A stretch of DNA of 38,781 bases from Chloroflexota bacterium (GCA_023424355.1 JAFAEA010000236.1:1-38781), one strand, 5' to 3'; positions 513 through 38,781 are shown, numbered from the stretch's first letter. Numbers and translations: made by a program. Notes: a model not told the origin generated them from the letters alone.

Positions 513-893
513 ATGGCTATTACGTATTCATATGGGCGCATCGTGATTCAGCAAGGCACCAGCTTCGGCGCGGTGTTCCCGTTCCGCAATCCCGACCTGG
601 TGACGTGCGATGACTTTACCGAGTGGAGCGCCACGTTTGAGATCTTCGACGCTAACGGCGTGAGCCTCTACAAGTGGAGTTCCGCCACCAGCGCCAACGT
701 CGCAACCGGTCTGTGGAACCCCACCGGGAACTTTGCCTACAACGTGTATGTGGAACTGACCAAGGAGCAGACAGCGGCTATGAGCGACTGGGGGCAGGGC
801 CACTTTGACCTCGATGTGCTTGACCCGTTCGGTCATGCCCAGTACCGGGTGCACGACCAGATCGTGCTGGAGGAGGGTACGACACATGGCTAA
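513..893 (+). CDS. hypothetical phage protein
   Basis: 126-aa ORF. The ATG is preceded by GGAGGA. Its stop overlaps the start of the next gene (ATGGCTAA). Confidence 0.55.
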   Translation: MAITYSYGRIVIQQGTSFGAVFPFRNPDLVTCDDFTEWSATFEIFDANGVSLYKWSSATSANVATGLWNPTGNFAYNVYVELTKEQTAAMSDWGQGHFDLDVLDPFGHAQYRVHDQIVLEEGTTHG

Positions 894-2886
894 TGGACGA
901 ACACTGGTGAGGCCTGAATGGACAACGCTGCCGGGCGGGGATATTAGCGCAGCCGAGTGGGGCGTTGCGCTAACTGATATTGGCGACATCAAGGCGGGTG
1001 TCAACCTTGTGGAGACACGTACATTCGACGTGCGAAAGTACGGCTCGATTTTCACGGCCAACGACGCGCCAGCCTTCCAGGCTGCCATTGACGCGGTTCA
1101 TGCAGCGGGCGGAGGCGTCGTTACCGGGCCTGCCGGGTTCTACACCTTTACGGCGGGACTTACTGTGCCGGATGGGGTTTCGTTCGAATTCCCCGGGAGC
1201 GGTTCAACGGAATTTGACTTTTCCGCGATGACAACCAACGCGCCGGGGCCAGCGGGAATCTATGCAGGTGGGACACTCACCAACCTTGGTGGCCTTGGTG
1301 CTGACGTTCAAAAAGACACCTTGGCGATTACGCTGGCGGCCGCTCCGACCGGTGTTATGCCGGGCGACTACCTTATTATCTACAACAGCACAGATGGTTC
1401 ATTCAACCCCGCGCGTTCATACTATCGCGCTGGTGAGTTTCTGCGTGTCCTCTCGGTGTCTGGAACCACCATCACCCTCACAGCCCCCACGTACGCAAGT
1501 TACACCGTACACACGAACCGAACCGTCTATAAGGTCACCCCCGCCCGTGTGGCGCTATCGGGATTCAGGGCGGTATTCAAGCCTGGAGCGTCTGGCATTG
1601 TCGTTGACCTTGGGACAGGGGTGAAGATCGACGATGTGCGTGCTACCGGCTCGAACCACAGTATTATTCAACTTCGGCGCTGTGTAGACGTAACGCTAAA
1701 TGATGTGCACGCATGGGACGCCTCGCCCTCGGTCGCAATTAACTACGGCGTTTCCATCGTCAATTGCCAGAGCGTGACCATTGACGAGTCGTTCCTGGAA
1801 ACGACCCGACACGGCTTGACCCTTACCGGCATTGATGTGCCGGGGTGTGTGCCGAACCGCAACATCACCGTACGCGGTGGCCGCATCAGCTCGAACGGCA
1901 ATCTTACGCACGGCATGGGGCTTGACATGCACGGAAACGTTGAGCATGTGCAGTTCATTGATGTTGATATGCCAAGAGGCGTGATGATCGCAGGCGACCA
2001 CACATACCTGCGAGGCCGGGTTCGCTCTGGCCCTGGCGGCACGGCCATCCGATCTCGTGAAATGATCGGCTGGAGCCATGAAATCGACGTAAAGGTGACC
2101 GTAACCGAGCAAACCGTCGCGGGGTTTGGCTGGATTGATTTGAAGGAAACGGGGGTCACTCGGCAGAACGGTCACTTGCAGGTGAAGGCAGAGATTGACG
2201 CCGGCGCGTACGGTAATATTTCTGGCACACATTACGGCGTGTACATCTACAACAATGGTGGCAGTCACGTCAACGACGTGACGATAGACCTCACCGTGCA
2301 CTCTGGCCTTCCTGATCTTGGCTCCGGTGCGCTCGCACTCTGGTTGCGGGCGGCAGCAGGAACAGGGTGGCGCGATGTTGATTACACCGTCAAGGCAAAA
2401 CGCATGGGCGTTCGAATCGAGTGCAGTCCCCGCCTCATCACGCGCCACGACTGTGACATCTATGAGCCGCCCCGCGAAGGCATCATAACGGTTCCGGTCG
2501 CATCACCTATCTGGACATCGACCCGGATGCGCTCGTACAACAATCGCGTCTTGTCCGCAGGGTCGACGGGCATTTCGGATCAGATGTCGGGCGTGTCGGG
2601 TGGCGAGTTGATATCCGATAACGATCAATCGGTATCGTGTAACCGCCTTGGCATTGGCACGACCTATACCGGCACCAGTTGGTATATCGCAAATATCCGT
2701 CGGGTGGTTCGCCGGAACTGCGTGATCGGCGACGACCAGGGCACACCGACACAACTAAGAAGCGATGGGGTTGACAACGTCGGCACATTCATCGACGTGC
2801 GCCCCGTAATTGTAGGGAGTGTGACGACAAAACAGCGGGGCACCATCACTACATCGCTGGAAGATCCGCCGATCCTGGCGGGGTAA
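886..2886 (+). CDS. tailspike / tail fibre protein with pectate-lyase-like right-handed beta-helix domain
   Basis: The frame is open from 805, but the ATG at 886 follows GGAGGAGGG and overlaps the upstream stop. The N-terminal segment FDVRKYGSIFTANDAPAFQAAIDAVHAAGGGVVTGPAGFYTF resembles the start of pectate-lyase-superfamily depolymerase domains. Length 666 aa. Confidence 0.7.
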   Translation: MANGRTLVRPEWTTLPGGDISAAEWGVALTDIGDIKAGVNLVETRTFDVRKYGSIFTANDAPAFQAAIDAVHAAGGGVVTGPAGFYTFTAGLTVPDGVSFEFPGSGSTEFDFSAMTTNAPGPAGIYAGGTLTNLGGLGADVQKDTLAITLAAAPTGVMPGDYLIIYNSTDGSFNPARSYYRAGEFLRVLSVSGTTITLTAPTYASYTVHTNRTVYKVTPARVALSGFRAVFKPGASGIVVDLGTGVKIDDVRATGSNHSIIQLRRCVDVTLNDVHAWDASPSVAINYGVSIVNCQSVTIDESFLETTRHGLTLTGIDVPGCVPNRNITVRGGRISSNGNLTHGMGLDMHGNVEHVQFIDVDMPRGVMIAGDHTYLRGRVRSGPGGTAIRSREMIGWSHEIDVKVTVTEQTVAGFGWIDLKETGVTRQNGHLQVKAEIDAGAYGNISGTHYGVYIYNNGGSHVNDVTIDLTVHSGLPDLGSGALALWLRAAAGTGWRDVDYTVKAKRMGVRIECSPRLITRHDCDIYEPPREGIITVPVASPIWTSTRMRSYNNRVLSAGSTGISDQMSGVSGGELISDNDQSVSCNRLGIGTTYTGTSWYIANIRRVVRRNCVIGDDQGTPTQLRSDGVDNVGTFIDVRPVIVGSVTTKQRGTITTSLEDPPILAG

Positions 2887-5106: not shown

Positions 5107-5199
5107 GGAACGGCACAACTGAATGAGGTGATGGCGATGGCTGTCGGGAACGCAGAGATGCGTTGCTGGCGGCTTCTTTCATTTAATCGAGGTGGAGAT

Positions 5200-6429
5200 A
5201 TGGCTACATATTCAACGGAGATCCCAGGCGTTCCAGGTGGCCCGATTGTCACCAGCTTTCCGGTGTATCTCAAGATCGCTCCAACGTGGCGCACCAACGT
5301 GCGACCAGGCATCAAGGCTCGCACGCCACGACGGCCAGTGCAGCACGAGACCGCCAACCCGAACAGCATGGCGGTGGATGATGCCACCTATCTCTACAAC
5401 GGCTCCGGCGGCCGTCAGGCCAGCTGGCACATCACCGTCGATGACATCGCGGCCTATGTCGGCATTCCGCTCGATGAGGTGACGTGGCAAGCGTCCGATG
5501 GTGCCGGACCCGGCAACTACAACGGGATCAGCTGCGAGCTGGCGGTTCATCGAAACATCGTTGCCAGTGATGCTCGACGCGCTGAATCACAGCGCAAGGC
5601 TGCCGAGATCATGGGCAAGATCGGTGCGCGGCTCGATGCTATGCCACCCGCGAAACGTCACCACGATTACGCTCCAGACAAGAAGTGGTGCCCTGCCCAG
5701 ATGATGAATCGCGGCGAATGGAATCGATACGTGGACTGGTGGGCCGGGTACTTCCAGGAGGAGAAGCGATCGATGGCTGGCGGTGGATCCGAATCGGCCT
5801 ACAAGAAGGGTGACCGTATCGAGGTGACCGCACAGGCACTGAATGTTCGTGTGGGCTATGGCCTCGACTACCGCATCGTCACCACGCTCACGCCAGGTCG
5901 AACCGCCACGGTGATTGCTGATGACGCTGGCAACTCCAGCGTGTATCGCGATGGATACCAGTGGCTGAACGTGGATATCGACAACTTCGGCACCGGCTGG
6001 ATGGCCATGGGCAACGCCTCGGAAAGCTGGGTCGGAAAGGCTTCCACCCCCGCGCCAGTAGAGCCGCCGAAGAAATACGCGCCAGTGGTTCCGGTGAAGG
6101 AACTGCTGGAGACGAACTTTAGCTTTGCCGATAAGTACAACACCGCCGAGGGCATCACCACCGTCAATGAATCGGAGTTCATCTTCGTGGCTGACGTGAT
6201 CGAGTTCAAGCGCAGCTCGCCAGCGAAGCAGTACGCGATGGAAGCCGCCAAAGATGTGAAGGCGCCGTATCAGGACGGCGATCGTGTGATTGCCGCATGG
6301 CTGGTGAAATCCAGCGAAGGAACCTGGTGGTATCTCCTCACAGGTGGAGACGATGAATGGGTGAGAGTGAAGTACATCGACACGGTTCGCATTGCCGATG
6401 CTCCGCTGCTGGGAGATGACGCTAATTGA
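5200..6429 (+). CDS. endolysin: N-acetylmuramoyl-L-alanine amidase (Amidase_2/PGRP-type) with C-terminal SH3-like wall-binding region
   Basis: The ATG at 5200 lies 1 nt downstream of a GGTGGAGAT purine run (the frame is open from 5128). Zn-ligand pattern as in T7-lysozyme-type amidases: VQHETANP ... HHDYAPDKKWCP. An SH3b-like segment follows (YKKGDRIEVTAQALNVRVGYGLDYRIVTTL...GYQWLNV). Confidence 0.85.
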   Translation: MATYSTEIPGVPGGPIVTSFPVYLKIAPTWRTNVRPGIKARTPRRPVQHETANPNSMAVDDATYLYNGSGGRQASWHITVDDIAAYVGIPLDEVTWQASDGAGPGNYNGISCELAVHRNIVASDARRAESQRKAAEIMGKIGARLDAMPPAKRHHDYAPDKKWCPAQMMNRGEWNRYVDWWAGYFQEEKRSMAGGGSESAYKKGDRIEVTAQALNVRVGYGLDYRIVTTLTPGRTATVIADDAGNSSVYRDGYQWLNVDIDNFGTGWMAMGNASESWVGKASTPAPVEPPKKYAPVVPVKELLETNFSFADKYNTAEGITTVNESEFIFVADVIEFKRSSPAKQYAMEAAKDVKAPYQDGDRVIAAWLVKSSEGTWWYLLTGGDDEWVRVKYIDTVRIADAPLLGDDAN

Positions 6430-7110: not shown

Positions 7111-7149
7111 TGACAAGGTTGAGACCGTTCGCGAGGATTTGATCCCCGG

Positions 7150-7222
7150 AGCACCTGGAGAGATTCGAACTCCCAACCGTCGGTTTACAAAACCACTGCT
7201 CTACCGTTAGAGCTACAGGTGC
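7150..7222 (-). tRNA. tRNA-Thr (anticodon UGU)
   Basis: Hand-folded reverse complement: acceptor GCACCTG/CAGGTGC, U8, D-arm GCTC/GAGC, anticodon loop TTTGTAA, T-arm GGGAG-TTCGAAT-CTCTC, discriminator T. CCA is not fully encoded. Confidence 0.8.
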
Positions 7223-7277
7223 CAAGCTGCGTAGGTCAGACACCCTGCAGAGGCGGTGTACACGTCCTCCCTACGCA

Positions 7278-7351
7278 TGGAGCGACAGGCGAGAATCGAA
7301 CTCGCATCCACAGCTTGGAAGGCTGGCATTGGGCCATTCAACTACTGTCGC
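7278..7351 (-). tRNA. tRNA-Gly (anticodon UCC)
   Basis: Reverse complement GCGACAG TA GTTG..CAAT G CCAGC CTTCCAA GCTGT GGAT GCGAG TTCGATT CTCGC CTGTCGC T CCA. Anticodon arm and T-arm closely resemble my recollection of bacterial glyT-type tRNA. CCA is encoded. Confidence 0.85.
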
Positions 7352-7363
7352 ATGAACGATCCG

Positions 7364-7433
7364 AACCGGCGACGGGATTCGAACCCGCAACCCCCTTCCA
7401 AAAGTCGGTGCTCTGCCGTTGAGCTACGCCGGG
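7364..7433 (-). tRNA. tRNA-like element with aberrant anticodon arm (possible pseudo-tRNA or attP-associated tRNA copy)
   Basis: Good 6-bp acceptor (CCGGCG/CGCCGG, with a C1:U72 mismatch), D-arm GCTC-AACGGCA-GAGC and T-arm GCGGG-TTCGAAT-CCCGT. Only 21 nt (ACCGACTTTTGGAAGGGGGTT) separate the D and T stems, and no 5-bp anticodon stem can be drawn. The best loop readings are UUG or UGG. Confidence 0.5.
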
Positions 7434-7721: not shown

Positions 7722-7802
7722 ATACACGCGACTACACGCGCATGCACGCGCATGCGTGAATATCAATTCACGCGCGGAATTCACGCACCGCCTGATTCAC
7801 GC
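7722..7802. repeat. array of CACGC-core repeats (candidate integrase/excisionase arm-type or regulator binding sites)
   Basis: NCACGCG occurs at 7724-7730, 7734-7740 and 7744-7750, at exact 10-bp phasing. An inverted GCGTG lies at 7754-7758. ATTCACGC occurs at 7766-7773, 7779-7786 and 7795-7802, with a further ATTCACGC at 7582-7589. Confidence 0.5.
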
Positions 7803-8932
7803 ATGAGGATCTCTTCCATCGCGTTTGCTGCAGGGCGCTGCATATCGACATCTACATGCGAGTACACATCGGCTGTGGTGGCCAGGCTGGTGTGTCCAAG
7901 GATGCTGGAGACGACTTTGATATTGATTCCTGATCGCAGCATGGCCGTGGCTGCCGTATGCCGGAGATCATGTAGTCGGCAATGTGGCACGTCAGCGAGA
8001 TCACACACGTTCTTATGCCATCGTGCGATGCTCGATTGTGGAAGCAGCAAACCGTTACCTCGATCGAACACAAGATCCGTTGAGACCCATTCTTCCGATC
8101 GCAGCCGGCGCTCATTCTGATCGACCTTCAGAAGCCGAAGTGCCTTGATCGCGATCTCGGGTATGGCGATAGTGCGAGTGCGACTGGTTTTGGTTGTGAC
8201 TCCAACGTGCTGACGAAAGTTCTCATCACGGGTGATGGTTCGTTGGCATGAGATTGTTCCCGCCGAGAGATCCACATCTGCCCACATGAGAGCGCGCATT
8301 TCGCCAGGTCTCAATCCCGTTGAGAGTGCCAGCGTATAGAAGGCGTTGAGCGTAGTATCACCTCGCACTACCTTCATCACGGCATTGATGTGTGATTCTG
8401 ACCACACCATACGCCCAGAACGTCGAAGAGTTGGCGTCATAGTACCTAGCACTGGATTCGAGTTGATCACGCCGAGTGCGATGATCTCCTTCATGGTTCC
8501 GTGCAGAATGATTCGCGAGTTGCGAACAGACGACGAACTGTATCGAGAGGCGAGATTGTCTATCCATCGCTGAACATCGTGCGGTGTGAGTTCCACGACT
8601 TTGCGTTTTCCGAGATGAGGGTAGAGGCGTGTCTCGGCAACCTGCTCATAGCTGGCGTAAGTATTGCTCGACCAGCGACGTTTCCCGCGCTCCAGATATT
8701 CGATCACTGCCTCTTTCACCGTCATCTGGGACGCTGGCGAATATCGTCCGGAACGCTTCAGGCGACCCACAGTGCGTAGATGGTCTTCCGCGTCCTCGAT
8801 GGTTCCGAAGGTCTTGGATCGCCATTTCGTGCCTTCCTGCCATCGCGCCTGATACCGAATCTCGCCCTCACTGGTTTGCCGCTCGGTGACAAAACCGTCG
8901 CCTCGCCTTACCTCGTGTTTTCGCCTTGCCAT
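7781..8932 (-). CDS. int: tyrosine recombinase / phage integrase
   Basis: 383 aa. Catalytic signature TGLRPGEMRAL ... CRLHDLRHTAATAML ... LGHTSLATTADVYSHV (R..HxxR..H..Y). Adjacent to the tRNA genes. Confidence 0.9.
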   Translation of the reverse strand: MARRKHEVRRGDGFVTERQTSEGEIRYQARWQEGTKWRSKTFGTIEDAEDHLRTVGRLKRSGRYSPASQMTVKEAVIEYLERGKRRWSSNTYASYEQVAETRLYPHLGKRKVVELTPHDVQRWIDNLASRYSSSSVRNSRIILHGTMKEIIALGVINSNPVLGTMTPTLRRSGRMVWSESHINAVMKVVRGDTTLNAFYTLALSTGLRPGEMRALMWADVDLSAGTISCQRTITRDENFRQHVGVTTKTSRTRTIAIPEIAIKALRLLKVDQNERRLRSEEWVSTDLVFDRGNGLLLPQSSIARWHKNVCDLADVPHCRLHDLRHTAATAMLRSGINIKVVSSILGHTSLATTADVYSHVDVDMQRPAANAMEEILMRESGGA

Positions 8933-9014
8933 ATCGCCCTCCAGTCAATTGCCCATGATGACTACCGCACAAAAACTGCTGATATATCAACAACCTGTGA
9001 CAATCTGGTACATC

Positions 9015-9043
9015 TTGCCTAATCAGAACAAGTGTTCTAAAGT
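9015..9043 (+). promoter_or_regulatory. sigma70-like promoter candidate with embedded inverted repeat
   Basis: TTGCCT (9015-9020), a 17-nt spacer, then TAAAGT (9038-9043). The spacer contains GAACA-ag-TGTTC (9026-9037). It lies about 45 nt upstream of the 9086 ORF. Confidence 0.35.
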
Positions 9044-9085
9044 CTGTTTCAGGAACGATGGTATCACAACAGATCGGAGCGACCA

Positions 9086-9490
9086 GTGATCAAGCGAACT
9101 CGTGTTTTTCGTAGCGTGACCGTGACCAAGGAGGATGGGCGAGAGGGCAAGTACTCGGCTCAAGTGATTGTCGAGACCAACATCGAAACGGGCGCGGTGG
9201 TCTTCAAGGTGGTATCGCAGGTGTTGCCGAAGAGATGCGCAAAGTTCCGGGGCTCGGGCAATCAAGCTGCTGACCAGGAGCACTTGATGAAGCTCTGTCA
9301 GGACATGTACGAGTTCGATCGAGGATATGGGCCACGACCGGTGCCGAAGCCTGGCGGAGGGAAGCGCAAGGGATCCACACGTATGGCTATTGCGCCAACG
9401 TGCACCAAGTGTGGCGGCGATGGTTGGTACGTCGATGAGACGGGATACGAGTTCACCTGCGAGTGTCGAGGCAAATATGCAGACTTCTGA
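9086..9490 (+). CDS. hypothetical protein with C-terminal CxxCxGxG-type zinc finger
   Basis: 134 aa with a GTG start after GGAGCG. The C-terminus is CTKCGGDGWYVDETGYEFTCEC. Confidence 0.55.
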   Translation: MIKRTRVFRSVTVTKEDGREGKYSAQVIVETNIETGAVVFKVVSQVLPKRCAKFRGSGNQAADQEHLMKLCQDMYEFDRGYGPRPVPKPGGGKRKGSTRMAIAPTCTKCGGDGWYVDETGYEFTCECRGKYADF

Positions 9491-9815
9491 AACACTGCCC
9501 AACTGGCCACCACCAGATGGCGAAGTCATCGGTGTCGAACGTGCTCGCGAATACGTGGCGTGGATCCGCGAGCATGTGGCTCCGCTTCTCAAAGAAGGCG
9601 AGCGGATACTGCGAGATCGGTTCGGTGACACGGGAGTGACAGCGGTGTCAGCTCGTGTCGATCAGATCGCAGAGTGGAAGCTTGATCCTCGATCGGAACG
9701 TCTTAACGTGGGCGTGCTGTATTGCTCCATCAAATCCGGCGCCTGGGCGATGCTGGACATCAATATCAAGCGGGATGGTCGGTTGGAGCTGCGGCCTGGG
9801 TGGAATATGCGGTGA
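9477..9815 (+). CDS. hypothetical protein
   Basis: The ATG at 9477 (frame open from 9327) overlaps the end of the upstream ORF by 14 nt. Length 112 aa. Confidence 0.5.
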   Translation: MQTSETLPNWPPPDGEVIGVERAREYVAWIREHVAPLLKEGERILRDRFGDTGVTAVSARVDQIAEWKLDPRSERLNVGVLYCSIKSGAWAMLDINIKRDGRLELRPGWNMR

Positions 9816-9838
9816 GGAAACTATCGAGGTAGGAGCAC

Positions 9839-10207
9839 TTAAATGTGTTTTTCCTTCTGCACTCTTCCGATAATCTTCAACGCAGAAGCTCTGTGGCTCT
9901 CATAGTCGCCCATCAGTGTATCTATCGTCATATAGAGATCGTAATCTGCGGAGTTGCGAGCTTCTCTGAGCTGATTCAAATCGTCGGCCAGGTTCTCGTC
10001 AATCGATTCGAGTGCAGTTATGACGTCTCCGTGGACCTTAGAGCCTTTTCCGAAGCTAACGGACCTATCTCTCGCGAAAAAATCCCGACAAACCAGAAAT
10101 GTCGCATAGTAGAGACGGCTCATTGCGGTGCGCTGTTCAGCCTCTGAGCACGTACCCCAGCAATTCTTGCTTGCAACATCCAAGAATCCCATGGGATCGA
10201 ACATCAC
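9839..10207 (-). CDS. HEPN-like (UPF0332-type) small protein, candidate toxin/effector
   Basis: 122 aa. The pattern SRLYYATFLVCRDFF ... KVHGDVITALES ... LNQLREARNSADYD matches my recollection of the helical HEPN/UPF0332 profile (YYA..., H-containing helix, R-x3-ADY). 4-nt overlap with the upstream gene. AT-richer than the phage backbone. Confidence 0.6.
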   Translation of the reverse strand: MMFDPMGFLDVASKNCWGTCSEAEQRTAMSRLYYATFLVCRDFFARDRSVSFGKGSKVHGDVITALESIDENLADDLNQLREARNSADYDLYMTIDTLMGDYESHRASALKIIGRVQKEKHI

Positions 10208-10662
10208 TCAATGACTCTCAAAATGATCGGTGTCACCAATTGGCAATCCCCCGGGTATTCTGATTTGTATTCGGCCCGAATATCGGATTTTGCAATCTCG
10301 AACTCTTGATCAGGCAGACGAATGCGAAGGTAAAGTGAAAGCTTTACTTCATCGTCGATGTTAGTCGAAAGACGAACCTCGCCAACGGAGAGATCATCAC
10401 GGCTGGCGAATTGTTCAGCGATCGTGATGAGAGAAATGATCTGCTCAAGTGCAAGGGGATTGTTGTCAATGAAGTCTCTTACCGCTGCTCGATGATGTAG
10501 GGGGGCCGAGTCGATTGAAGCTTGAGCTTCGGCAGGAACAAGAATCGATCTGCGAGCCGCAACCCTATCCATTCCAGTTGACGGCCATGCCCATACCTTA
10601 TCGCTCGCACCCAGGGCACTTGCGAGGGTTTCTATCACTTGGTATTGGGTCAGTCTATTCAT
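10204..10662 (-). CDS. hypothetical protein, partner of HEPN-like gene
   Basis: 152 aa. Overlaps the downstream HEPN-like gene by 4 nt (ATGA-type) and the upstream ORF by 8 nt. I could find no nucleotidyltransferase (GS...DxD) motif. Confidence 0.65.
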   Translation of the reverse strand: MNRLTQYQVIETLASALGASDKVWAWPSTGMDRVAARRSILVPAEAQASIDSAPLHHRAAVRDFIDNNPLALEQIISLITIAEQFASRDDLSVGEVRLSTNIDDEVKLSLYLRIRLPDQEFEIAKSDIRAEYKSEYPGDCQLVTPIILRVIE

Positions 10663-11131
10663 CTATGTCACCTTCATCCAACTTGCTCTTAGCAGATACC
10701 ATCTCAATGCCTTCATCGAACCCTTCTCGATCAAGGAATTTTTTGATGGCACTATTCAAGGCAGTGCGCGCTGACCTTCTGGACTTGCTTGTGGTGATCT
10801 TTTTCTCGTTGTGGCCGTCAATGAGACTGCAATACCACGCCTCATCGGTTTTTAGAATGACGAACCCCGCCATCGCGGATTCTCCATCCTTTCCAACTAC
10901 CCTCATTTGAAGTACATTGTTTGAAACAAGCATTTCCTCGAGCAGCTCGTCCCTTTTCTGGTCATATGAGAGCTCTTGCTTGTCACCCACTGCGAATACC
11001 TCTCTATAGTGCCGCAAGTCGCAATCTTCTAGGACGGTCCTTCTGGATCCGTCGCTTGGAACTAGCACCCGTTCGTTTCTGCATTGTGGTTTACAAACGG
11101 CACTGATGTCAATAATTATTGACGCCTCCAC
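10655..11131 (-). CDS. hypothetical acidic-tailed protein (start uncertain)
   Basis: The frame is open to a TTG at 11251 (198 aa), but codons upstream of about 11116 look like the out-of-frame shadow of a GC3-rich 59-aa ORF. Candidate starts are GTG 11131 (coupled to that ORF) or GTG 10990 (preceded by GAGAGG, 8-nt spacing). The C-terminus DEGIEMVSAKSKLDEGDIDE is acidic. Confidence 0.5.
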   Translation of the reverse strand: MEASIIIDISAVCKPQCRNERVLVPSDGSRRTVLEDCDLRHYREVFAVGDKQELSYDQKRDELLEEMLVSNNVLQMRVVGKDGESAMAGFVILKTDEAWYCSLIDGHNEKKITTSKSRRSARTALNSAIKKFLDREGFDEGIEMVSAKSKLDEGDIDE

Positions 11132-11295
11132 ACAATCACGCCGTTCCCCACATGCTTGAACGTCGCCGGCTTCGGTGAGCACGGCTCGAAGCGATGGTCG
11201 CCCTGGGCATATCGGTCGTGCACGTCTCGGCGATACCCGCAGTGGCGGCAATAGGCGCCGTTCATCGGGAGCGGGCGGCGGGGTGGGGTGGTCAT
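11116..11295 (-). CDS. 59-aa zinc-ribbon-like protein (MTTPPRRPLPMNGAYCRHCGYRRDVHDRYAQGDHRFEPCSPKPATFKHVGNGVIVWRRQ)
   Basis: Just below the ORF-track cutoff. The ATG lies 3 nt after the TAA of the 331-aa gene. Third codon positions are strongly G/C-rich, unlike its AT-richer neighbours. CxxC...H...C pattern. Confidence 0.5.
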   Translation of the reverse strand: MTTPPRRPLPMNGAYCRHCGYRRDVHDRYAQGDHRFEPCSPKPATFKHVGNGVIVWRRQ

Positions 11296-11298
11296 GGG

Positions 11299-12294
11299 TT
11301 AGGGGCGATCTTCATGCGGTATATGGGAATATTCAGTCACATCGCCCACTGACTTCTTTTGTGGATCCCAAGACCCTGGGATGTCGCTTGAAGATGGAAT
11401 CGCAACTGTTGGGTCGTAAGGATAGCCAGCTACAATCGTTTCAATAGCGGTAATTGCATCAATATCCAATCCCCCACTCATGAACGACAGCACATGCCAA
11501 TCATGACGAACAAACACAATTGCAGTTGCTCCGGTTCCATTTTGGACCGCGCAAGTTTGATCACCCTCTATTCCTGTGTCTGCCCAATGCGCAGTGTCTC
11601 CGGTGCTTATGAAGTAGGCGGCGGCTTCATCACACATGCCCTGAAACGCGTCCGAGGCACTGGTGGCATCGACAAATTCATAGGAGGTGATGACAAGGAG
11701 GAGAGGCGAACCAGCAGCGGGGGATTTTGCGACCAGGCCTATTTGGGTAACCCGATCGGCCTGGGGGACGTAAGCGATTGGTTCAAGTGGTTTTTCTGAT
11801 TGGGAAACTGGTGGTTCACTGTCATCGGAAGGCACTTCTCCTCTTTCATCGGACAGGAGATAGAGGTTTGCTCCGTTCTTCAGATTTTCGAGAATACGGA
11901 AGTTCACTCTTTCGAGCTGGATCCCAAGCAATGAGAATTCATATCCCGATGTTTGGGGAAGCTCAACGTCAAACTCGTAGTAGCAGCCTCTATGCTTGTT
12001 ACCATTGTCGAATGTAGCGGTTGCTTCCATGCCCGTGGGAATATCGAATTTGAACTGATGGTCACCATCCCAACTCATCACTTCGAGACGAGCGGGCTGT
12101 CCAAAGTCGTCAACCTGGCAAGTTGCTGTATCCAGAGAAGAGACTTCATCGCTGACGAACAGCTTGATCGTCAGGACCAGCGAAGTTGAAGTGGACTGGT
12201 TGCTGTCTCTTGTGCCACGCTGGCCAGCCGTCATATTGACCGGGATCACCAGGAGTACAGAGATCACGATTGGCACAAGATATCTAGCCACCAT
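11299..12294 (-). CDS. signal-anchored / secreted protein of unknown function
   Basis: 331 aa. AGGAGG lies about 5 nt upstream of the ATG, and the stop of the repressor gene is embedded in that SD (9-nt intergenic gap). N-terminal hydrophobic helix (YLVPIVISVLLVIPV), two beta-rich regions joined by an acidic/Pro linker (SDDSEPPVSQSEKPLEP). Confidence 0.75.
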   Translation of the reverse strand: MVARYLVPIVISVLLVIPVNMTAGQRGTRDSNQSTSTSLVLTIKLFVSDEVSSLDTATCQVDDFGQPARLEVMSWDGDHQFKFDIPTGMEATATFDNGNKHRGCYYEFDVELPQTSGYEFSLLGIQLERVNFRILENLKNGANLYLLSDERGEVPSDDSEPPVSQSEKPLEPIAYVPQADRVTQIGLVAKSPAAGSPLLLVITSYEFVDATSASDAFQGMCDEAAAYFISTGDTAHWADTGIEGDQTCAVQNGTGATAIVFVRHDWHVLSFMSGGLDIDAITAIETIVAGYPYDPTVAIPSSSDIPGSWDPQKKSVGDVTEYSHIPHEDRP

Positions 12295-12303
12295 ACATTC
12301 CTC

Positions 12304-12681
12304 CTAATTTCGCTTCTTCAACATCCGGCCATATCCCTCAACCACATATCGTATGTGATCGATATCTTCCTCATCGAAATCGTATCTATCGAGTACTGGT
12401 CGCAGAGCAGCGATGGCGGGCGAATCTCCTTCTTTCCCAGTCTCAATGTCATATCCAGCGGCGGCAAGAATATCGGCGGACGACACCCTCAGCGCTTTTG
12501 ACAAAGCAAGAACATCCTCGGGAGGGGGTAGCTCTTTTGCCGCCCCTCGTTCAATTCGAGATACCCAATTTTGGGACTTGCCAATTGCGTTGGCCAGCTC
12601 CATCTGACTTTGGAAACCTGCGGATATTCGACTGGTTGCTATGAAGTTGCCCAATTTGTCCATGCTCCTAGTTTTGCTCAT
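12304..12681 (-). CDS. XRE-family helix-turn-helix repressor (CI-like)
   Basis: 125 aa. HTH segment SQMELANAIGKSQNWVSRIERG. Divergent from the Cro/Xis-like genes across a 96-nt promoter region. No SD before the ATG at 12681, so it may be leaderless. No S24 peptidase domain. Confidence 0.85.
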   Translation of the reverse strand: MSKTRSMDKLGNFIATSRISAGFQSQMELANAIGKSQNWVSRIERGAAKELPPPEDVLALSKALRVSSADILAAAGYDIETGKEGDSPAIAALRPVLDRYDFDEEDIDHIRYVVEGYGRMLKKRN

Positions 12682-12691
12682 TAGATAACTA

Positions 12692-12720
12692 TTGACAATC
12701 GCATAGTGAGTAGTTACTAT
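12692..12720 (+). promoter_or_regulatory. rightward early promoter candidate in the genetic switch
   Basis: TTGACA (12692-12697), a 17-nt spacer, then TACTAT (12715-12720). It is flanked or overlapped by the direct repeats TAACTATTG (12686-12694) and TTACTATTG (12714-12722), which are operator candidates. Confidence 0.45.
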
Positions 12721-12777
12721 TGGGTTACCGCGAGATGAGACGTAAGTATTCTCTCTCGATAGCTAAGGAGTGAGTCC

Positions 12778-12981
12778 GTGAGTCGCATGATCGTTATGGA
12801 CCCCGACACCAAGAAGAACGTAACCCTGGTGCTGACATGGGGCATTGATGCCTGGCTCAAAGAGCAGGCAGATATTCGCAGTGAGCGAGAAGGCAAGCGC
12901 GTTTCCAACGCAGTCATTGCTCGTGAGGTTTTCGAGAATGCCATGCGCGAATCCGAAGCCAAGTCCGGAAAGGCGGCATAG
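12778..12981 (+). CDS. small Cro-like / ribbon-helix-helix-like regulator
   Basis: 67 aa. GTG start 7 nt after AAGGAG (alternative ATG at 12787). First gene of the rightward operon, divergent from the repressor. Confidence 0.6.
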   Translation: MSRMIVMDPDTKKNVTLVLTWGIDAWLKEQADIRSEREGKRVSNAVIAREVFENAMRESEAKSGKAA

Positions 12982-13224
12982 ATGAGTGAGTTCGTGCCGA
13001 TCGAGGAGGTCATGCAGGCGCTTCAACTGACGAAGCGCCAGGTCTACCGCGATATCGACCAAGAGCGAATCCCTGGATTCTTTCGATACACCGGCAAGAG
13101 AAACCGAACCGCCTACGTGCTGCGCCATGAGTGGAACCTATTCCTCCGTCGTGAGTGGACGCCGAAGAGTGATCGGCCACGAGTTGGACTCCATGAGGTG
13201 CCGCGACTCGAAAAGGTGAGCTGA
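12982..13224 (+). CDS. excisionase-like / MerR-type HTH DNA-binding protein
   Basis: 80 aa. IEEVMQALQLTKRQVYRDIDQERIPGF resembles the Xis/AlpA-type HTH. The start immediately follows the upstream TAG. Confidence 0.55.
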   Translation: MSEFVPIEEVMQALQLTKRQVYRDIDQERIPGFFRYTGKRNRTAYVLRHEWNLFLRREWTPKSDRPRVGLHEVPRLEKVS

Positions 13225-13228
13225 TCAT

Positions 13229-13297
13229 CCTGATCCGGAGCTCAACCTTGAGGGCAATCCCTGCTGTAGCGGTGGAGATTGAGGGCTCCGGATCAGG
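13229..13297. repeat. 13-bp perfect inverted repeat with 43-nt spacer
   Basis: CCTGATCCGGAGC (13229-13241) and GCTCCGGATCAGG (13285-13297), in the intergenic region after the Xis-like gene. Confidence 0.5.
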
Positions 13298-13371
13298 GCG
13301 ATCGGCCCCACCTAGAGAGTACGGGATGCAAATCCACAGTTGATATATGCGCAGGAAGGGAGGTGAGACAC

Positions 13372-13677
13372 ATGGCACAGGCACCACGCATCACAAAGGA
13401 GACGGCGATTCGAACCGAGCTCGCATTTGATGCACTAACCGAAGGGCTGTCCGATGGAGTGCTCTGCGAGATCGAGCAATCCAACGTGATCCGACTGTTG
13501 TTCGACGCTCAGGCGAGCGCGACTCGATCAGATCTGGCAGCTCAGATCGCAGTGGGCGGTATGCGCGGCAGCATCGAGAGGCGGCATCACCAGGATTTGG
13601 TGAATGAGTTCACTCGACTCGGCTCGATCATGTCGCCGTTACCAGCGGAAGACATGGAACCGCTCGACGCGGCGTAG
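13372..13677 (+). CDS. hypothetical protein
   Basis: The ATG at 13372 follows GGAAGGGAGGTGAG (frame open from 13279). Length 101 aa. Confidence 0.55.
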   Translation: MAQAPRITKETAIRTELAFDALTEGLSDGVLCEIEQSNVIRLLFDAQASATRSDLAAQIAVGGMRGSIERRHHQDLVNEFTRLGSIMSPLPAEDMEPLDAA

Positions 13678-23388: not shown

Positions 23389-25629
23389 ATGCTTGCAACC
23401 GCTTCGCCACATCCACGAGCCACGATCCGCTATCAGCCGGTGGGATCTGCAAAGGATCTCATTGCTGCTCGCGATCTCGAGGTGCTGGCGGTCGGCCCGG
23501 CCGGCACAGGCAAGACGCTCGCTGCCTGCTGGAAGATTCACCTGGCGTGCCTGCGATATCCCGGCATTCGCGTGCTGATGGTGCGTAAGACGCTGGAATC
23601 GCTCAAGAGCGGTGCGCTCAACACGTTCATCAACGGTGTGCAACCGATCCGGTTCGGCGTCGAGACGTTTGGCGGCAACAAGTTCTTTCCCGCGGAGTTC
23701 CGATATCCCAACGGCAGCGTGATTCTCGTATCCGGCATGGATAAGGCGGAGAAGATCTTGTCCGCCGAGTTCGACATCATCTACGTCAACGAGATCACCG
23801 AGCCAGGCTTCATGGAATCTGATCTTGAGGTACTGCTCACCCGATTGCGCAACGGCAAGATGCCATATCAGCAGATCATCGCAGACGGCAACCCGAGTGG
23901 ACCGCGCCATTGGATGAACCGACGCTGCAACGAAGGTAAGACCCGGCGCATCACATCGACCCATAAAGACAATCCTGTGTACTGGGATGCCAAGAAGAAT
24001 GATTGGACCGACGTTGGCAGGCAGTACGTGCAAACGGTGCTTGCTGGCCTGACCGGTGTGCAGCGCAAACGCTTGTTCGAGGGCGTGTGGGCAGCCTCCG
24101 AAGGTCTGGTGTACTCCGAGTTCAATCCCGATGTGCACATCAAGTCGATACCACCCGAAGAGCTTGCCACCTGGAAGCGCGTCGTGCTCGGTGAAGACGT
24201 GGGTAGCACGAACCCGACCGTGATTCTGGTTGGGCACCAGCGCGGCGATGGCTACCTGCACATCAGTCACGAGATGTATCGCCGCGGCATGAGCAGCTCG
24301 GATATCACCGACGCCACCGTAGAGTTCTGGAAGCAGCACAAGCCTGACAAGCTCGTCATTGACCCGAGCGCCAAGGGGTACATCACCGATCTTCGACGCC
24401 AGGGCATTTACGTGGAAGCGGCACAGAATGACATTCTCGTTGGTGTCCAACGTGTGCATGGTCAGTTACAGGCTGGCTTCAGTATCGACCCGGCGTGCAC
24501 GAACACGATCGATGAGTTTGGCATGTATGCGTACCCCGACAACCCCAAGGTAGATACCGACAAGCCGATCAAGGAGAACGATCACTGCCTGATTGCCGGG
24601 ACTATGGTGACCACCATCAGCGGGGACAAGGCTATTGAGGCAGTTCAGAATGGCGAACTTGTGCTGACACGTGACGGATATCGGGAGGTTGTGTCCGCTG
24701 GTATGACGAATCCATCCGCCGAAGTGATGACCGTGCACTTGTCAAACGGGAAGTCGATAACTGGTACTGCGGGGCACCCTGTGTTTGCCAATGGGCAATG
24801 GGTCCTAATGGATGAACTGCGATACGGTGATATACTTATGGAGACAAGAGAGGTGTCTTCATGCGAGTTGAAATCATCGTCTATCGCGGTATCAAGTTCC
24901 GACGGTATCCAGATTCAGATCGGCTGTCAGACCAGCGATACTACCGGCCGCATGCCGGGCTCATTCGTAACGGCGTTCAAGCATTGCATCGAGAAATTTG
25001 GAAAGACCACAACGGACCAATCCCGGAAGGGCATCATATCCACCACATTGACGGGAACCCCGACAACAATGCTGTTGAGAATCTTGCATGCGTTCCGGCA
25101 GGTGACCATCTCAGCCATCACGGCAGCCAGCCATCGTCTGAACGAAAGCTGGCGCACTTGGAATCCATCCGCGACGCTGCTGCTGAATGGCATGGATCTG
25201 AGGCCGGTATTGAGTGGCACCGTGAACACGGTAGGCGTTCATGGGCAAAACGGCAGCCAGAGACAAGAACGTGCGAACAGTGCGGATGCGAGTTCGACGA
25301 TATTGCGCGGCGCTCTCGGTTCTGTTCAAACAAATGCAAGTCGGCATGGCGTAGAGCCAGCGGTGTCGATGATGAAGACCGAACCTGTGAGAACTGTGGG
25401 GCATCTTTCCGAACCGACAAATACAGCAAGACACGCACATGCACTCGTGCATGTGCTGGGCGTCTCCAAAGTCGCACAAAGGCAAGCAGTCTATAACCTG
25501 ACAGTAGCCGGTACGCCTGAATTTTTTGCGAACGGGGTGCTCGTCCACAACTGTATGGACGCGCTCCGGTACCTGGTGATGGGCATTACGGAACCGACGA
25601 TCGATCTCAAGAACTTCTTTGGCGTTTAG
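23389..25629 (+). CDS. terL: terminase large subunit, interrupted by an intein
   Basis: Walker A VGPAGTGKT, Walker B FDIIYVNEI. The nuclease-domain motif KENDH / CMDALRYL is split by a 322-aa Hint element. The exteins are 23389-24585 and 25552-25629. Confidence 0.9.
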   Translation: MLATASPHPRATIRYQPVGSAKDLIAARDLEVLAVGPAGTGKTLAACWKIHLACLRYPGIRVLMVRKTLESLKSGALNTFINGVQPIRFGVETFGGNKFFPAEFRYPNGSVILVSGMDKAEKILSAEFDIIYVNEITEPGFMESDLEVLLTRLRNGKMPYQQIIADGNPSGPRHWMNRRCNEGKTRRITSTHKDNPVYWDAKKNDWTDVGRQYVQTVLAGLTGVQRKRLFEGVWAASEGLVYSEFNPDVHIKSIPPEELATWKRVVLGEDVGSTNPTVILVGHQRGDGYLHISHEMYRRGMSSSDITDATVEFWKQHKPDKLVIDPSAKGYITDLRRQGIYVEAAQNDILVGVQRVHGQLQAGFSIDPACTNTIDEFGMYAYPDNPKVDTDKPIKENDHCLIAGTMVTTISGDKAIEAVQNGELVLTRDGYREVVSAGMTNPSAEVMTVHLSNGKSITGTAGHPVFANGQWVLMDELRYGDILMETREVSSCELKSSSIAVSSSDGIQIQIGCQTSDTTGRMPGSFVTAFKHCIEKFGKTTTDQSRKGIISTTLTGTPTTMLLRILHAFRQVTISAITAASHRLNESWRTWNPSATLLLNGMDLRPVLSGTVNTVGVHGQNGSQRQERANSADASSTILRGALGSVQTNASRHGVEPAVSMMKTEPVRTVGHLSEPTNTARHAHALVHVLGVSKVAQRQAVYNLTVAGTPEFFANGVLVHNCMDALRYLVMGITEPTIDLKNFFGV
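24586..25551 (+). mobile_element. intein within TerL (Hint domain split by about 213 aa)
   Basis: Block A CLIAGTMV directly after ENDH. Block B ITGTAGHPVF. Blocks F/G VYNLTVAGTPEFFANGVLVHN followed by +1 Cys (CMDALRY). Confidence 0.8.
24861..25496 (+). CDS. HNH homing endonuclease encoded out of frame inside the intein
   Basis: 211 aa in a different + strand frame from terL. GAGAGG lies 8 nt upstream of the ATG, and an in-frame TGA at 24828-24830 blocks any upstream extension. HNH motif HREIW...GHHIHHIDGNPDNNAVENL. Two C-terminal CxxC...CxxxC zinc modules. The TAA lies inside the Y-N codons of intein block F. Confidence 0.8.
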   Translation: MRVEIIVYRGIKFRRYPDSDRLSDQRYYRPHAGLIRNGVQALHREIWKDHNGPIPEGHHIHHIDGNPDNNAVENLACVPAGDHLSHHGSQPSSERKLAHLESIRDAAAEWHGSEAGIEWHREHGRRSWAKRQPETRTCEQCGCEFDDIARRSRFCSNKCKSAWRRASGVDDEDRTCENCGASFRTDKYSKTRTCTRACAGRLQSRTKASSL

Positions 25630-38123: not shown

Positions 38124-38781
38124 ATGGCTGTAGCAGCACTTGTCAGTCAAACACCGGTCGTCATGGCCACCATCGGACAGGTCTCCACACGCGTCACTGC
38201 TTTGGATACCACTCACGATGTAGACCGCGGCATCGGGCAATGCACCATTCGCACGCCTGCGCTGTTCAGCTGGGTCGTGTTGGGCGCTTCTGTATCGATT
38301 CAGATCGGGTACGAAGATACGGGCACACAGCCAGTGTTCACCGGCACTGTGGTGAACGTGAGACGATCGTTGAGCGAAACCGGTGGCTGGGAGCTTGTGG
38401 CGAGCTGCGAAGGCCAGCTGGCAAGGATGGTGGACGGTGAAGAAACCACTGTGCAGTTCCCGCGGATCTATTTGGGAGACATTGCGAGATCGCTGACCTC
38501 CATGCGTGGCGTTGGGCCGTTGATGCTCGATCGCATCAAGAGTCCGGTGCTGTGGGATCAGGATACGAACTGGATCATCCTGGGCGGGAATCGCTACGTC
38601 GATGACGGCATGGTCGTGATCAACAACCGCAGCGGCCTGTACGGCTGGCTGTCACAGAAGCTCGAACTGTTCGGCTATCGCATCTTCGATCGACCGGCAG
38701 CCGACGTGAAGGTCGCACGACTGTTTGGATCTCCAACGCATCCGCAGCACTTCGCCACCGAAGGCGTGGATATCTTTCGCG
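38124..38781 (+). CDS. tail tip / baseplate-hub-like protein, open at the window end
   Basis: The ATG lies 1 nt after the upstream TGA. I translated all 219 codons by hand and found no stop before the window edge. It is absent from the ORF track, presumably because it has no stop. Confidence 0.6.
   Translation, partial: MAVAALVSQTPVVMATIGQVSTRVTALDTTHDVDRGIGQCTIRTPALFSWVVLGASVSIQIGYEDTGTQPVFTGTVVNVRRSLSETGGWELVASCEGQLARMVDGEETTVQFPRIYLGDIARSLTSMRGVGPLMLDRIKSPVLWDQDTNWIILGGNRYVDDGMVVINNRSGLYGWLSQKLELFGYRIFDRPAADVKVARLFGSPTHPQHFATEGVDIFR

Follow-up and report, generated by a model that had tools for sequence, protein, structure and literature searches.

A block of about 3.1 kb, comprising a repressor and the genes behind it, is probably a temperate-phage immunity block that can be exchanged as a unit, its cargo consisting of morons, namely a HEPN toxin/neutraliser module and an exported ORFan. 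The window, that is the whole stretch of DNA analysed (38,781 nucleotides), probably belongs to a temperate phage of an actinobacterium. The sequence-only reading had taken six minus-strand genes of this region for a single novel defence system; that reading is overstated, since the mosaic composition of the cassette, an internal promoter-like site with a palindrome, the replacement of the cargo in a sister phage and the two-gene organization of the HEPN unit elsewhere all speak against it.

The exchange unit was delimited by comparison with the sister phage L168, whose integrase falls in the same 90% cluster (at least 90% identical) and in which both flanks of the block are kept. The identities to L168 were 86% for p112, 76% for xis80, 47% for p134 and 40% for the repressor. 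On one side the homology at the DNA level begins again near 9811, at the 3' end of p112, and on the other near 12949, within the final ~10 codons of the 67-aa gene. The genes of the 331-aa, 111-aa, 152-aa and HEPN proteins are missing from L168, which carries unrelated cargo behind its repressor at the same TAGGAG-9 nt junction, the first product, in the same layout, being an unrelated anchored protein. The two phages share flanks and differ entirely in cargo, and therefore the slot can be regarded as a cargo hotspot; the immunity regions of prophages are known to serve as a reservoir of defence genes.

The swapped block, repressor included, coincides with a low-GC trough spanning 9501-13000. 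The cassette genes showed a GC content of 0.47-0.505 and a GC3 of 0.47-0.56, compared to 0.55-0.59 and 0.58-0.71 for the backbone genes of the phage, and the repressor (GC 0.497) is as low as the cargo. The earlier claim of an AT-richer cassette holds for the region overall but not for the 59-aa ORF, a GC-rich outlier (GC 0.65, GC3 0.78) among neighbours of GC3 0.47-0.56.

Table 1. Features of the immunity block and its cargo (positions in the window)
Feature	Position	Strand	Remarks
Swapped immunity-plus-cargo block compared to L168	9812..12948	.	limits of DNA homology
122-aa HEPN protein, PF05168 / AF0298-like	9839..10207	-	121 aa from ATG 10204
152-aa ORFan	10204..10662	-	translationally coupled to the HEPN gene
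111-aa acidic ORFan	10655..10990	-	first gene of the three-gene operon; realistic start GTG 10990
Candidate internal promoter and overlapping palindrome	11083..11123	-	consensus matches
59-aa basic ORF	11116..11295	-	pI 10.2; CxxC...H...C pattern; absent from the public gene calls
331-aa ORFan	11299..12294	-	N-terminal signal peptide or signal anchor; acidic two-part ectodomain; 4 Cys
XRE-family immunity repressor	12304..12681	-	125 aa; 116 aa from ATG 12654 (call of the public collection)
Divergent switch region, repressor to 67-aa Cro-position gene	12682..12777	.	promoter-like site and inverted repeat

The six ORFs and their junctions were reproduced, and the ORF map bears out that the cargo lies directly downstream of the immunity repressor in the same orientation. 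The stop codon of the repressor lies inside TAGGAGGAATGTATG, where it is overlapped by the Shine-Dalgarno (SD) sequence of the 331-aa gene. The 331-aa and 59-aa genes follow contiguously, at gaps of 9 nt and 3 nt (TAA-CCC-ATG) and with no intervening terminator, as expected of an operon linked to the repressor. The 111-aa and 152-aa genes overlap by 8 nt, and the 152-aa gene overlaps the 122-aa gene by 4 nt, or by 1 nt when the ATG start of the latter is taken. No terminator-like site was found on the strand of the cassette in 8900-13400, the single match there being on the plus strand within the XRE gene. Co-orientation and junctions thus agree with the six-gene chain described before, but its continuity does not, a gap of 125 nt separating the stop of the 59-aa ORF (11116) from GTG 10990 and hence dividing the chain into two halves of three genes each. 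The cassette had been called antisense to the flanking early genes; on the left it is convergent with two plus-strand genes (9086-9815), beyond which the integrase is again encoded on the minus strand. Identical cassette sequences were obtained from separate Logan and ENA assemblies.

The repressor matched Pfam HTH_31 (8e-12) and HTH_3 (1e-6) as well as PHROG families of transcriptional repressors/regulators, and is composed of an HTH and a short acidic C-terminal domain, without an S24 peptidase domain. The adjacent switch region contains a promoter-like TTGACA-17-TACTAT on the plus strand (12692..12720) and an imperfect inverted repeat (12686-12699 / 12703-12716) that includes TATTGAC.

Besides the HTH and HEPN products, the only ones matched by PADLOC models, no family was recognised among the cargo by the sequence-only reading, and the 331-aa, 152-aa and 111-aa proteins were indeed found to be ORFans. 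The 331-aa protein matched only itself among 5.8e9 proteins and gave nothing in Pfam, PADLOC, PHROG, NCBIfam, PDB or a phage tblastn; its AF2 model has a pLDDT of 38.6. Its description as signal-anchored fits: the protein (pI 4.3) has one hydrophobic segment only, residues 1-25, with a hydropathy of 2.32 over residues 1-19. If any product of the block acts at the envelope in superinfection exclusion, or in lysogenic conversion, this protein is the best candidate.

The 59-aa ORF had been designated a zinc ribbon. It shows the cysteine pattern listed in Table 1, but it has just three Cys plus His residues and its match to DUF6083 is sub-threshold (E=0.019). Its start region, TAACCCATGACCACCCCA, recurs in L168 in an ORF of 61 aa that occupies the corresponding junction. 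In the gap that follows, a promoter-like TTGACA-18-CACAAT (11112..11083) agrees with the consensus at 10 of 12 positions; such a site alone is weak evidence because the scan found 4 sites where 3.3 were expected. It is overlapped by a perfect 16-bp palindrome, GTCAATAATTATTGAC, at 11108-11123, which also overlaps the gap. The palindrome scan returned one match; of 100 shuffled sequences, 9 yielded one or more when up to 3 mismatches were allowed. The palindrome may be considered a candidate operator of the downstream three-gene operon. The ORF of the fourth gene extends over 10655-11251, and a GAGAGG followed after 8 nt by GTG 10990 indicates the start adopted here.

The HEPN-like character attributed to the 122-aa protein was confirmed at the family level by profile matches to HEPN proteins of known structure. 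Taken alone, the protein lies below every Pfam HEPN threshold; it matches phrog_5176 (7e-10) and, as the only PADLOC model, HEPN_IX (2e-5). The family around it comprises at least 420 representative clusters (E<=1e-3), Pfam HEPN (PF05168) being matched by 26 of 56 relatives, and the family profile found in the PDB 9xbd (3.5e-11), the Retron-Kva2 HEPN (3e-6) and AF0298 (2hsb, 8e-5). The canonical Rx4-6H catalytic motif is absent: it is replaced by R84-N-S-A-D88-Y89-D, with no His 4-6 residues from R84, and among the retrieved relatives, all scanned with a regular expression, 131 matched, 96 of them with Tyr at the His position. Therefore the 122-aa HEPN could be non-catalytic. On the other side, in an alignment of 56 sequences, the relatives being 28-38% identical to the 122-aa protein, no variation occurs at R26, R31, Y34, H59 or R84, and at least 90% keep D88 and Y89. 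H59 corresponds to the second His, N-terminal to the motif, of AF0298/AbiV-type HEPNs, for which an alternative active site with a conserved N-terminal His was described (PMC3710099).

The relatives of the HEPN protein are encoded in a two-gene unit without a recurrent third neighbour. A tightly coupled ORF precedes the HEPN gene in 71 of 75 genome loci and in 69 of 69 metagenome loci, and 132 of 140 such partners belong to one unannotated family of ~100-residue core, for which we coin the name X (eV..Fl...L...FP...l.le..DPE...l..v). Family X gave no NTase, Pfam, PADLOC or PDB match, none of 71 upstream partners matched NTase families, and two plain X members found nothing significant in NCBIfam. 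One example is WP_012599546.1 with WP_012599545.1 on pP742401 of Gloeothece citriformis, a cyanobacterial plasmid. The chromosomal neighbours are heterogeneous (191 Pfam families, none dominant) and do not clearly form defence islands. An X-like partner precedes the HEPN gene in three viral contigs; in two of them, L082 and L085, a TIGR04255-X-HEPN arrangement adjoins a CI-type repressor, on the same strand and behind it in L082, and in one viral contig the partner-HEPN module adjoins a type I R-M methyltransferase.

By position the 152/122 pair resembles this module, an RNxADYD-type HEPN gene being preceded by a same-strand gene that ends at its start. The 152-aa protein itself matched only itself among 5.8e9 proteins, its AF2 model has a pLDDT of 51, and neither it nor the 111-aa protein gave anything significant in Pfam, PADLOC or NCBIfam. 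Compared to family X, the full-length protein reached an hhalign probability of 4% and hmmsearch scores of 3.4-3.5 bits, which were equalled by 44 and 73 of 2000 shuffles (p 0.02-0.04). Residues 51-152 gave a weak global hhalign score of 10.7 (shuffles 3.4+-2.1; 3 of 300 reach the score, p ~0.01), and in this weak match the C-terminal ~100 residues align to X collinearly from end to end, so that this part is possibly a very divergent family-X domain, as judged from the alignment. The protein is not significantly X-like by standard searches, and therefore the analogy with the partner is mainly positional; the 152-aa protein is a candidate for the neutralising partner of the HEPN protein. The 111-aa protein, a singleton cluster without family match, does not match family X and may be a regulator.

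Several known systems are similar in part. In lambda cI-rexA-rexB, and with Sie-type membrane proteins placed between integrase and repressor, exclusion genes are linked to the repressor; the cassette likewise has co-oriented cargo right downstream of the repressor, the first product being membrane-anchored or exported, but, apart from the HEPN_IX match of the 122-aa protein, the cargo has no similarity to PADLOC models or to functionally annotated PHROG families. With the AF0298 (2hsb)/AbiV type (PMC3710099) the 122-aa protein has in common the length of ~120 aa, the retained Arg of Rx4-6H, D/Y at the His position and the second invariant His, and 9xbd, a "HEPN domain-containing protein", shows the motif RNxSDYD. 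The differences are that the 122-aa protein is below the Pfam threshold, the RNase activity of its subfamily is only predicted, and its partner gene is no nucleotidyltransferase. The MNT-HEPN systems (COG1708-COG2250; PADLOC PDC-M05) also couple a small upstream partner translationally to a small HEPN, and some members of the HEPN family match the PDC-M05B models; however, the minimal nucleotidyltransferase (GSx..DxD, NTP_transf_2 / Polbeta) is absent from the cassette and from the partners of the relatives. The X-HEPN module shares the HEPN subfamily, the upstream gene overlapping or abutting the HEPN start and a partner core of ~100 residues, but the 152-aa protein, whose resemblance to X is weak, has ~50 extra N-terminal residues and there is an additional 111-aa gene upstream. 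AbiV, with its alternative-His arrangement (PMC3710099), and the Retron-Kva2 HEPN (PDB 36ht_I), whose alignment with the family profile covers the N-terminal half of the latter, are likewise small HEPN effectors of anti-phage systems. Unlike Retron-Kva2, the cassette has no reverse transcriptase or ncRNA nearby; unlike AbiV, a HEPN protein reported to be an rRNA-cleaving RNase and to have an RNA antitoxin (bioRxiv 10.1101/2024.05.05.592566), and type III TA systems, it has a coupled protein-coding gene occupying the space upstream of the HEPN gene, and neither tandem repeats nor an Rfam match at E<=1 were found in 8900-13400.

These data suggest the following model. Besides the XRE repressor and its operators, the block would take in the 5' portion of the Cro-position gene; independently acquired morons would lie behind the repressor. 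The repressor, 331-aa and 59-aa genes would form a first unit read from the repressor promoter and therefore presumably expressed in the lysogen, whose exported or membrane-anchored 331-aa protein may act in exclusion. The 111-152-122 genes would form an autonomous second operon with its own promoter-like site and palindromic candidate operator. Its effector would be the HEPN protein, an RNase or RNA binder acting through an alternative R84/H59 site, and the coupled 152-aa protein its stoichiometric neutraliser; the 111-aa protein is set apart as a third unit, possibly a regulator. Disturbance of the partner, whether by superinfection with another phage or by prophage loss, would release HEPN activity, and the ensuing growth arrest would amount to abortive infection or to prophage addiction. 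Expression in the lysogen, toxicity and its neutralisation, RNase activity and the anti-phage effect of the cassette are what we infer from this arrangement.

The co-orientation of all genes on a strand where no terminator-like site was found, the tight junctions, the low GC common to all but the 59-aa ORF and the same-strand arrangement behind the CI repressor of L082 would agree with the repressor and all five cargo genes being co-transcribed and acting together, in defence or exclusion, as a single system of several components of the cI-rexA-rexB kind. We consider this quite improbable, given the gap with its promoter-like site and palindrome, the deviating GC3 of the 59-aa ORF, the lack of four of the genes in L168 and the two-gene unit of the HEPN family; moreover, the 331-aa, 111-aa and 152-aa proteins have no homologues on which co-occurrence could be assessed. 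That the 152/122 pair, alone or together with the 111-aa gene, is an addiction (TA) module of a selfish kind, stabilising the prophage or hitch-hiking on it without an anti-phage role, appears unlikely, although the relatives occur as scattered, isolated two-gene units among unrelated housekeeping neighbours and on a plasmid, as is typical of mobile TA modules. Against it stands the repeated location beside phage repressors, and once beside the R-M methyltransferase, which is the usual place of prophage defence cargo. The related MNT-HEPN pairs are classical TA systems (PMC2701414), yet addiction and defence are not mutually exclusive.

The replacement of the motif His (RNSADYD) and the existence of non-catalytic HEPNs such as MtlR and NTase-fused forms (PMC3710099) could also mean that the protein is a catalytically inert RNA- or protein-binding regulator, the cassette then being regulatory or lysogenic-conversion cargo. 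There is little probability of this, because the invariant residues persist at such low identity and match the alternative active site proposed for AF0298/AbiV, AbiV itself being reported to be an RNase. It is very improbable that the 331-, 152-, 111- and 59-aa ORFs are decaying or spurious frames in acquired junk DNA: the first three have no homologues among 5.8 billion proteins and the AF2 confidence of the 331- and 152-aa models is low, but the frames are long and uninterrupted in DNA of 50% GC, every junction has SD sequences and start/stop coupling, the separate assemblies agree, and the HEPN gene keeps every family-invariant residue.

Going further than this model, it is tempting to speculate, though with considerable doubt, that the 111-152-122 operon represents a new abortive-infection system carried by prophages, in which a non-canonical HEPN (alternative R/H site, RNxADYD) would be restrained by a protein partner of an undescribed class comprising family X and its divergent 152-aa relative, and that the 331-aa protein is a new superinfection-exclusion protein. 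If so, X-HEPN, which is unnamed in Pfam, PADLOC and PGAP, would be a new widespread TA/defence family distinct from MNT-HEPN and represented by at least 420 HEPN clusters. The general lead is a large HEPN subfamily without the canonical catalytic His, paired with the ~100-residue family X where a nucleotidyltransferase would be expected; should X be a protein antitoxin or a sensor, this would be an overlooked and widely distributed TA/defence family.

The six minus-strand ORFs reported by the sequence-only reading, with their junctions, were all found at 9839-12681. The stop codon of the XRE repressor gene is contained in TAGGAGGAATGTATG, 9 nt ahead of the 331-aa start, the 59-aa ORF is entered through TAA-CCC-ATG, and the 111-aa gene runs 8 nt into the 152-aa gene. 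The 152-aa gene overlaps the HEPN gene by 4 nt if the latter begins at its GTG, or by 1 nt (TGATG) if it begins at ATG 10204, which is the start of the public gene caller and agrees with the family N-terminus 'MFDP'. For the fourth gene GTG 10990 is the most plausible start, giving 111 aa. The AT-richness ascribed to the cassette was likewise confirmed, the GC content being 0.49-0.53 over 9501-13000 versus 0.55-0.61 elsewhere in the window, and 0.47-0.505 per cassette gene versus 0.55-0.59 for backbone genes; the repressor also belongs to the low-GC block. The picture of one AT-rich chain did not hold in two respects: the 59-aa ORF is a strong composition outlier (GC 0.65, GC3 0.78), and the chain is broken by a 125-nt non-coding gap, 10991-11115.

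Coordinates of the window features and composition of the cargo of the sister phage L168
Feature	Coordinates	Strand	Remark
Gp49-type tailspike	805-2886		left of cassette
Amidase/SH3 endolysin	5128-6429		left of cassette
Three tRNA genes	7148-7433	-	ARAGORN; left of cassette
Tyrosine integrase	7781-8932	-	left of cassette
122-aa HEPN protein	9839-10207	-	cassette
152-aa protein	10204-10662	-	cassette
111-aa protein	10655-10990	-	cassette
59-aa ORF	11116-11295	-	cassette
331-aa protein	11299-12294	-	cassette
XRE repressor	12304-12681	-	cassette
Large terminase	23389-25629	+	746 aa
135-aa membrane-anchored (TM-anchored) protein			L168, between repressor and p112
121-aa protein, unrelated to HEPN or X			L168, between repressor and p112
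61-aa membrane ORF			L168, between repressor and p112

On the cassette strand the gap contains a promoter-like TTGACA-18-CACAAT, weak evidence alone since the consensus scan gave 4 sites versus 3.3 expected. Its -35 hexamer is located inside a perfect 16-bp palindrome, GTCAATAATTATTGAC (11108-11123), whose half-site TATTGAC is also present between the repressor and the Cro-position gene (12690-12696) and within the 331-aa gene (12234-12240). The half-site occurs six times in the window, four of them in the cassette, and six copies were reached in just 4 of 100 shuffles. From this distribution, both the palindrome and the intergenic site may be bound by one cassette protein, the XRE repressor or another. 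The stop region of the HEPN gene folded no better than shuffles and is therefore not an intrinsic terminator, and neither an RNA antitoxin nor a known ncRNA was found at the cassette.

The window, which is the entire contig of 38,781 nt, is phage DNA from end to end. Early genes follow to the right of the cassette; gene calls from an independent assembly place homologues of RecT and VRR-NUC among them. Since the closest matches of the terminase are Streptomyces and Thermobifida phage terminases (37% identity), the phage host is probably an actinobacterium. The terminase is unusually long; the actinophage matches cover only residues ~14-403 and those of other phages ~219-745, which would fit an insertion or domains arranged in an unusual way. 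The tRNA-like trio between the lysis genes and the integrase comprises Thr-TGT, Gly-TCC and a third member that ARAGORN could not assign (two-base anticodon); these could be phage tRNAs or attP-related. The tail and lysis genes are placed upstream of the integrase, no exact terminal repeat of 11-200 nt was found between the contig ends (1-60 versus 38722-38781), and the break in another assembly of that sample is near the integrase instead; the contig may represent either a prophage fragment or a circularly permuted phage genome.

The decisive comparison was that with L168 (1578-3000, Logan SRR27294600), a sister phage found through its at least 90% identical integrase. Two plus-strand genes at 9086-9815, convergent on the HEPN gene, are kept in it: p134 (134 aa, 47% identical), whose product has a C-terminal Cys-rich CxxC...CxC segment, and p112 (112 aa, 86%); neither protein had a family match. 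An excisionase-like 80-aa protein is 76% identical, the repressor 40%, and the 67-aa protein in the Cro position 50% over its last 34 residues. The TAGGAG-9 nt junction, with the repressor stop embedded in the Shine-Dalgarno sequence, is common to both phages, though the downstream genes are unrelated. On the left the DNA of the two phages is homologous again from about 9811, on the right from about 12949, which puts the exchanged block at about 9812-12948, coincident with the low-GC trough. Inside the block the two phages have just 18 nt in common, TAACCCATGACYACCCCA, where the 59-aa ORF begins; the rest of that ORF, the 331-aa gene and the 111-152-HEPN operon are thus cargo specific to the window phage. 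The composition and the internal promoter and palindrome point to two or three separate acquisition events at the least. A p112 search of viral contigs found no further sister phages.

The XRE protein is a genuine repressor-type HTH protein (Pfam HTH_31, 8e-12) and lacks an S24 protease domain. In a set of about 15 billion proteins the 331-, 152- and 111-aa products each form a singleton cluster; they are ORFans and, as had been stated, belong to no recognisable family: no Pfam, PADLOC, PHROGs, NCBIfam, PDB-sequence or phage-genome match was obtained. Word-indexed homology searches matched the 331-, 152- and 122-aa proteins to nothing but themselves, and tblastn against phages gave nothing for the 331- and 152-aa proteins and only E about 0.5 for the 111- and 59-aa proteins. 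With one hydrophobic segment, at the N-terminus, four Cys and an acidic ectodomain (pI 4.3), the 331-aa protein is predicted to be exported or anchored. Single-sequence AF2 models of the 152-aa (pLDDT 51) and 331-aa (38.6) proteins were too poor for use, and Foldseek of the former against the PDB gave only fluorescent-protein noise at E>0.2. YegP/HicB-like patterns seen by eye in the 111-aa protein were backed by no library, and a common fold of the anchored L168 protein and the 331-aa N-domain, proposed from an eyeballed C..E[IL]P..Y motif, was rejected (Smith-Waterman z = -0.4).

The one informative cassette product is the 122-aa protein. Exhaustive phmmer retrieved 420 representative clusters at E<=1e-3, all of about 110-150 aa, the best being 39-48% identical. 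The family invariants are R26, R31, Y34, H59, L80 and R84, with motifs SRAYYAxF and RNxADYD, and 26 of 56 members reach Pfam HEPN PF05168. Against the PDB the family profile matched 9xbd, a 'HEPN domain-containing protein' with the same RNRSDYD motif (3.5e-11), the Retron-Kva2 HEPN effector (3e-6) and AF0298 (2hsb, 8e-5); the companion entry 9xbc has Phe in place of that motif Tyr, and no publication on either entry was found. The family profile and the conserved residues bear out the label 'HEPN-like', but the motif is non-canonical.

In reference genomes (80 loci) and metagenomes (80 loci), the HEPN start lies within a few nt of the end of an ORF on the same strand in 71/75 and 69/69 evaluable loci, respectively, the overlap commonly being 1-4 nt. 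BLASTP links join 62 of the 71 genome partners. After two HMM iterations a single family, here called X, takes in 132 of 140 partners; the large PF05168-type RNxADYD subfamily (at least 420 clusters, loci L002-L167) is paired with X to that extent in the sampled loci. X has a core of ~100 residues (consensus eV..Fl...L...FP...l.le..DPE...l..v) and no match in Pfam, PADLOC or the PDB, two plain members had no significant match in NCBIfam, and RefSeq labels it 'hypothetical protein' (Gloeothece citriformis plasmid pP742401, L172:2073-2800). The classical partner of PF05168 HEPN proteins is the minimal nucleotidyltransferase (MNT), PADLOC PDC-M05 being the MNT+HEPN pair (PMC12988326, PMC2701414). 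X is not a nucleotidyltransferase, and X-HEPN is therefore a distinct pairing, apparently so far undescribed. Among the 75 genome loci no conserved third gene was found beyond antisense shadow ORFs, and on chromosomes X-HEPN has varied neighbours, with 191 Pfam families in 132 flanking ORFs, the pattern expected of a mobile two-gene module.

The 152-aa protein occupies the position of X. The odds that it is a divergent X homologue are roughly even: standard tests on the full-length protein did not establish this (hhalign probability 4%; hmmsearch 3.4-3.5 bits, equalled in 2-4% of shuffles), and residues 51-152 aligned end-to-end and collinearly (global score 10.7 versus 3.4+-2.1 for shuffles, reached by 3/300), with AVRDFIDNNP on the eV..Fl motif and IDDE on DPE. 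An MNT identity was ruled out, as a nucleotidyltransferase family match was found neither here nor in the partners of relatives.

The HEPN family is rare in viral contigs, where five loci were found. L082 (2991-5345, IMG/VR) encodes a CI-type repressor, TIGR04255, an X-like protein and HEPN on one strand and adjoins a divergent Cro-like gene; in L085 (3608-6088, IMG/VR) TIGR04255, X-like and HEPN genes abut an S24 CI repressor. The L084 version has three genes, the middle one unassigned, and adjoins a type I R-M methyltransferase; in L083 and L084 the first gene (~290 aa) differs from the TIGR04255 gene. These placements lend independent support to the view that such HEPN modules ride beside phage repressors.

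The cassette had been proposed as one novel six-component defence system. A single six-gene system is unsupported, given the same integrase and flanks with different cargo in L168, the mosaic composition, and the internal promoter-like site and palindrome. What the sequence data support is a block of cargo linked to prophage immunity, containing an exported ORFan and a HEPN module of non-canonical type. The first unit (xre-331-59) would be expressed together with the repressor in lysogens, and the 331-aa ORFan would most simply be a superinfection-exclusion or surface-conversion factor, since it is exported, lies behind the repressor and is mirrored by the unrelated anchored protein of L168.

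The second unit (111-152-122) looks like an autonomous toxin/neutraliser operon, with GTCAATAATTATTGAC as a possible autoregulatory operator. The HEPN effector would act through R84/H59 and be neutralised by the coupled 152-aa protein; infection or prophage loss would release its activity and lead to growth arrest. A pure addiction module is a rival reading of this arrangement, and the HEPN protein could also be non-catalytic. Anantharaman et al. 2013 (PMC3710099) describe this motif variant for AbiV and for the HEPN-T proteins exemplified by AF0298: another residue stands in for the Rx4-6H His, and an alternative active site may be completed by a different conserved His that lies closer to the N-terminus; the 122-aa protein keeps all these residues and is therefore a normal member of this AF0298/AbiV-like subfamily. 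Of more interest than this prophage cargo is a by-product, the X-HEPN pairing, which is widespread and unannotated and may represent a toxin-antitoxin-like family not described before and different from MNT-HEPN.
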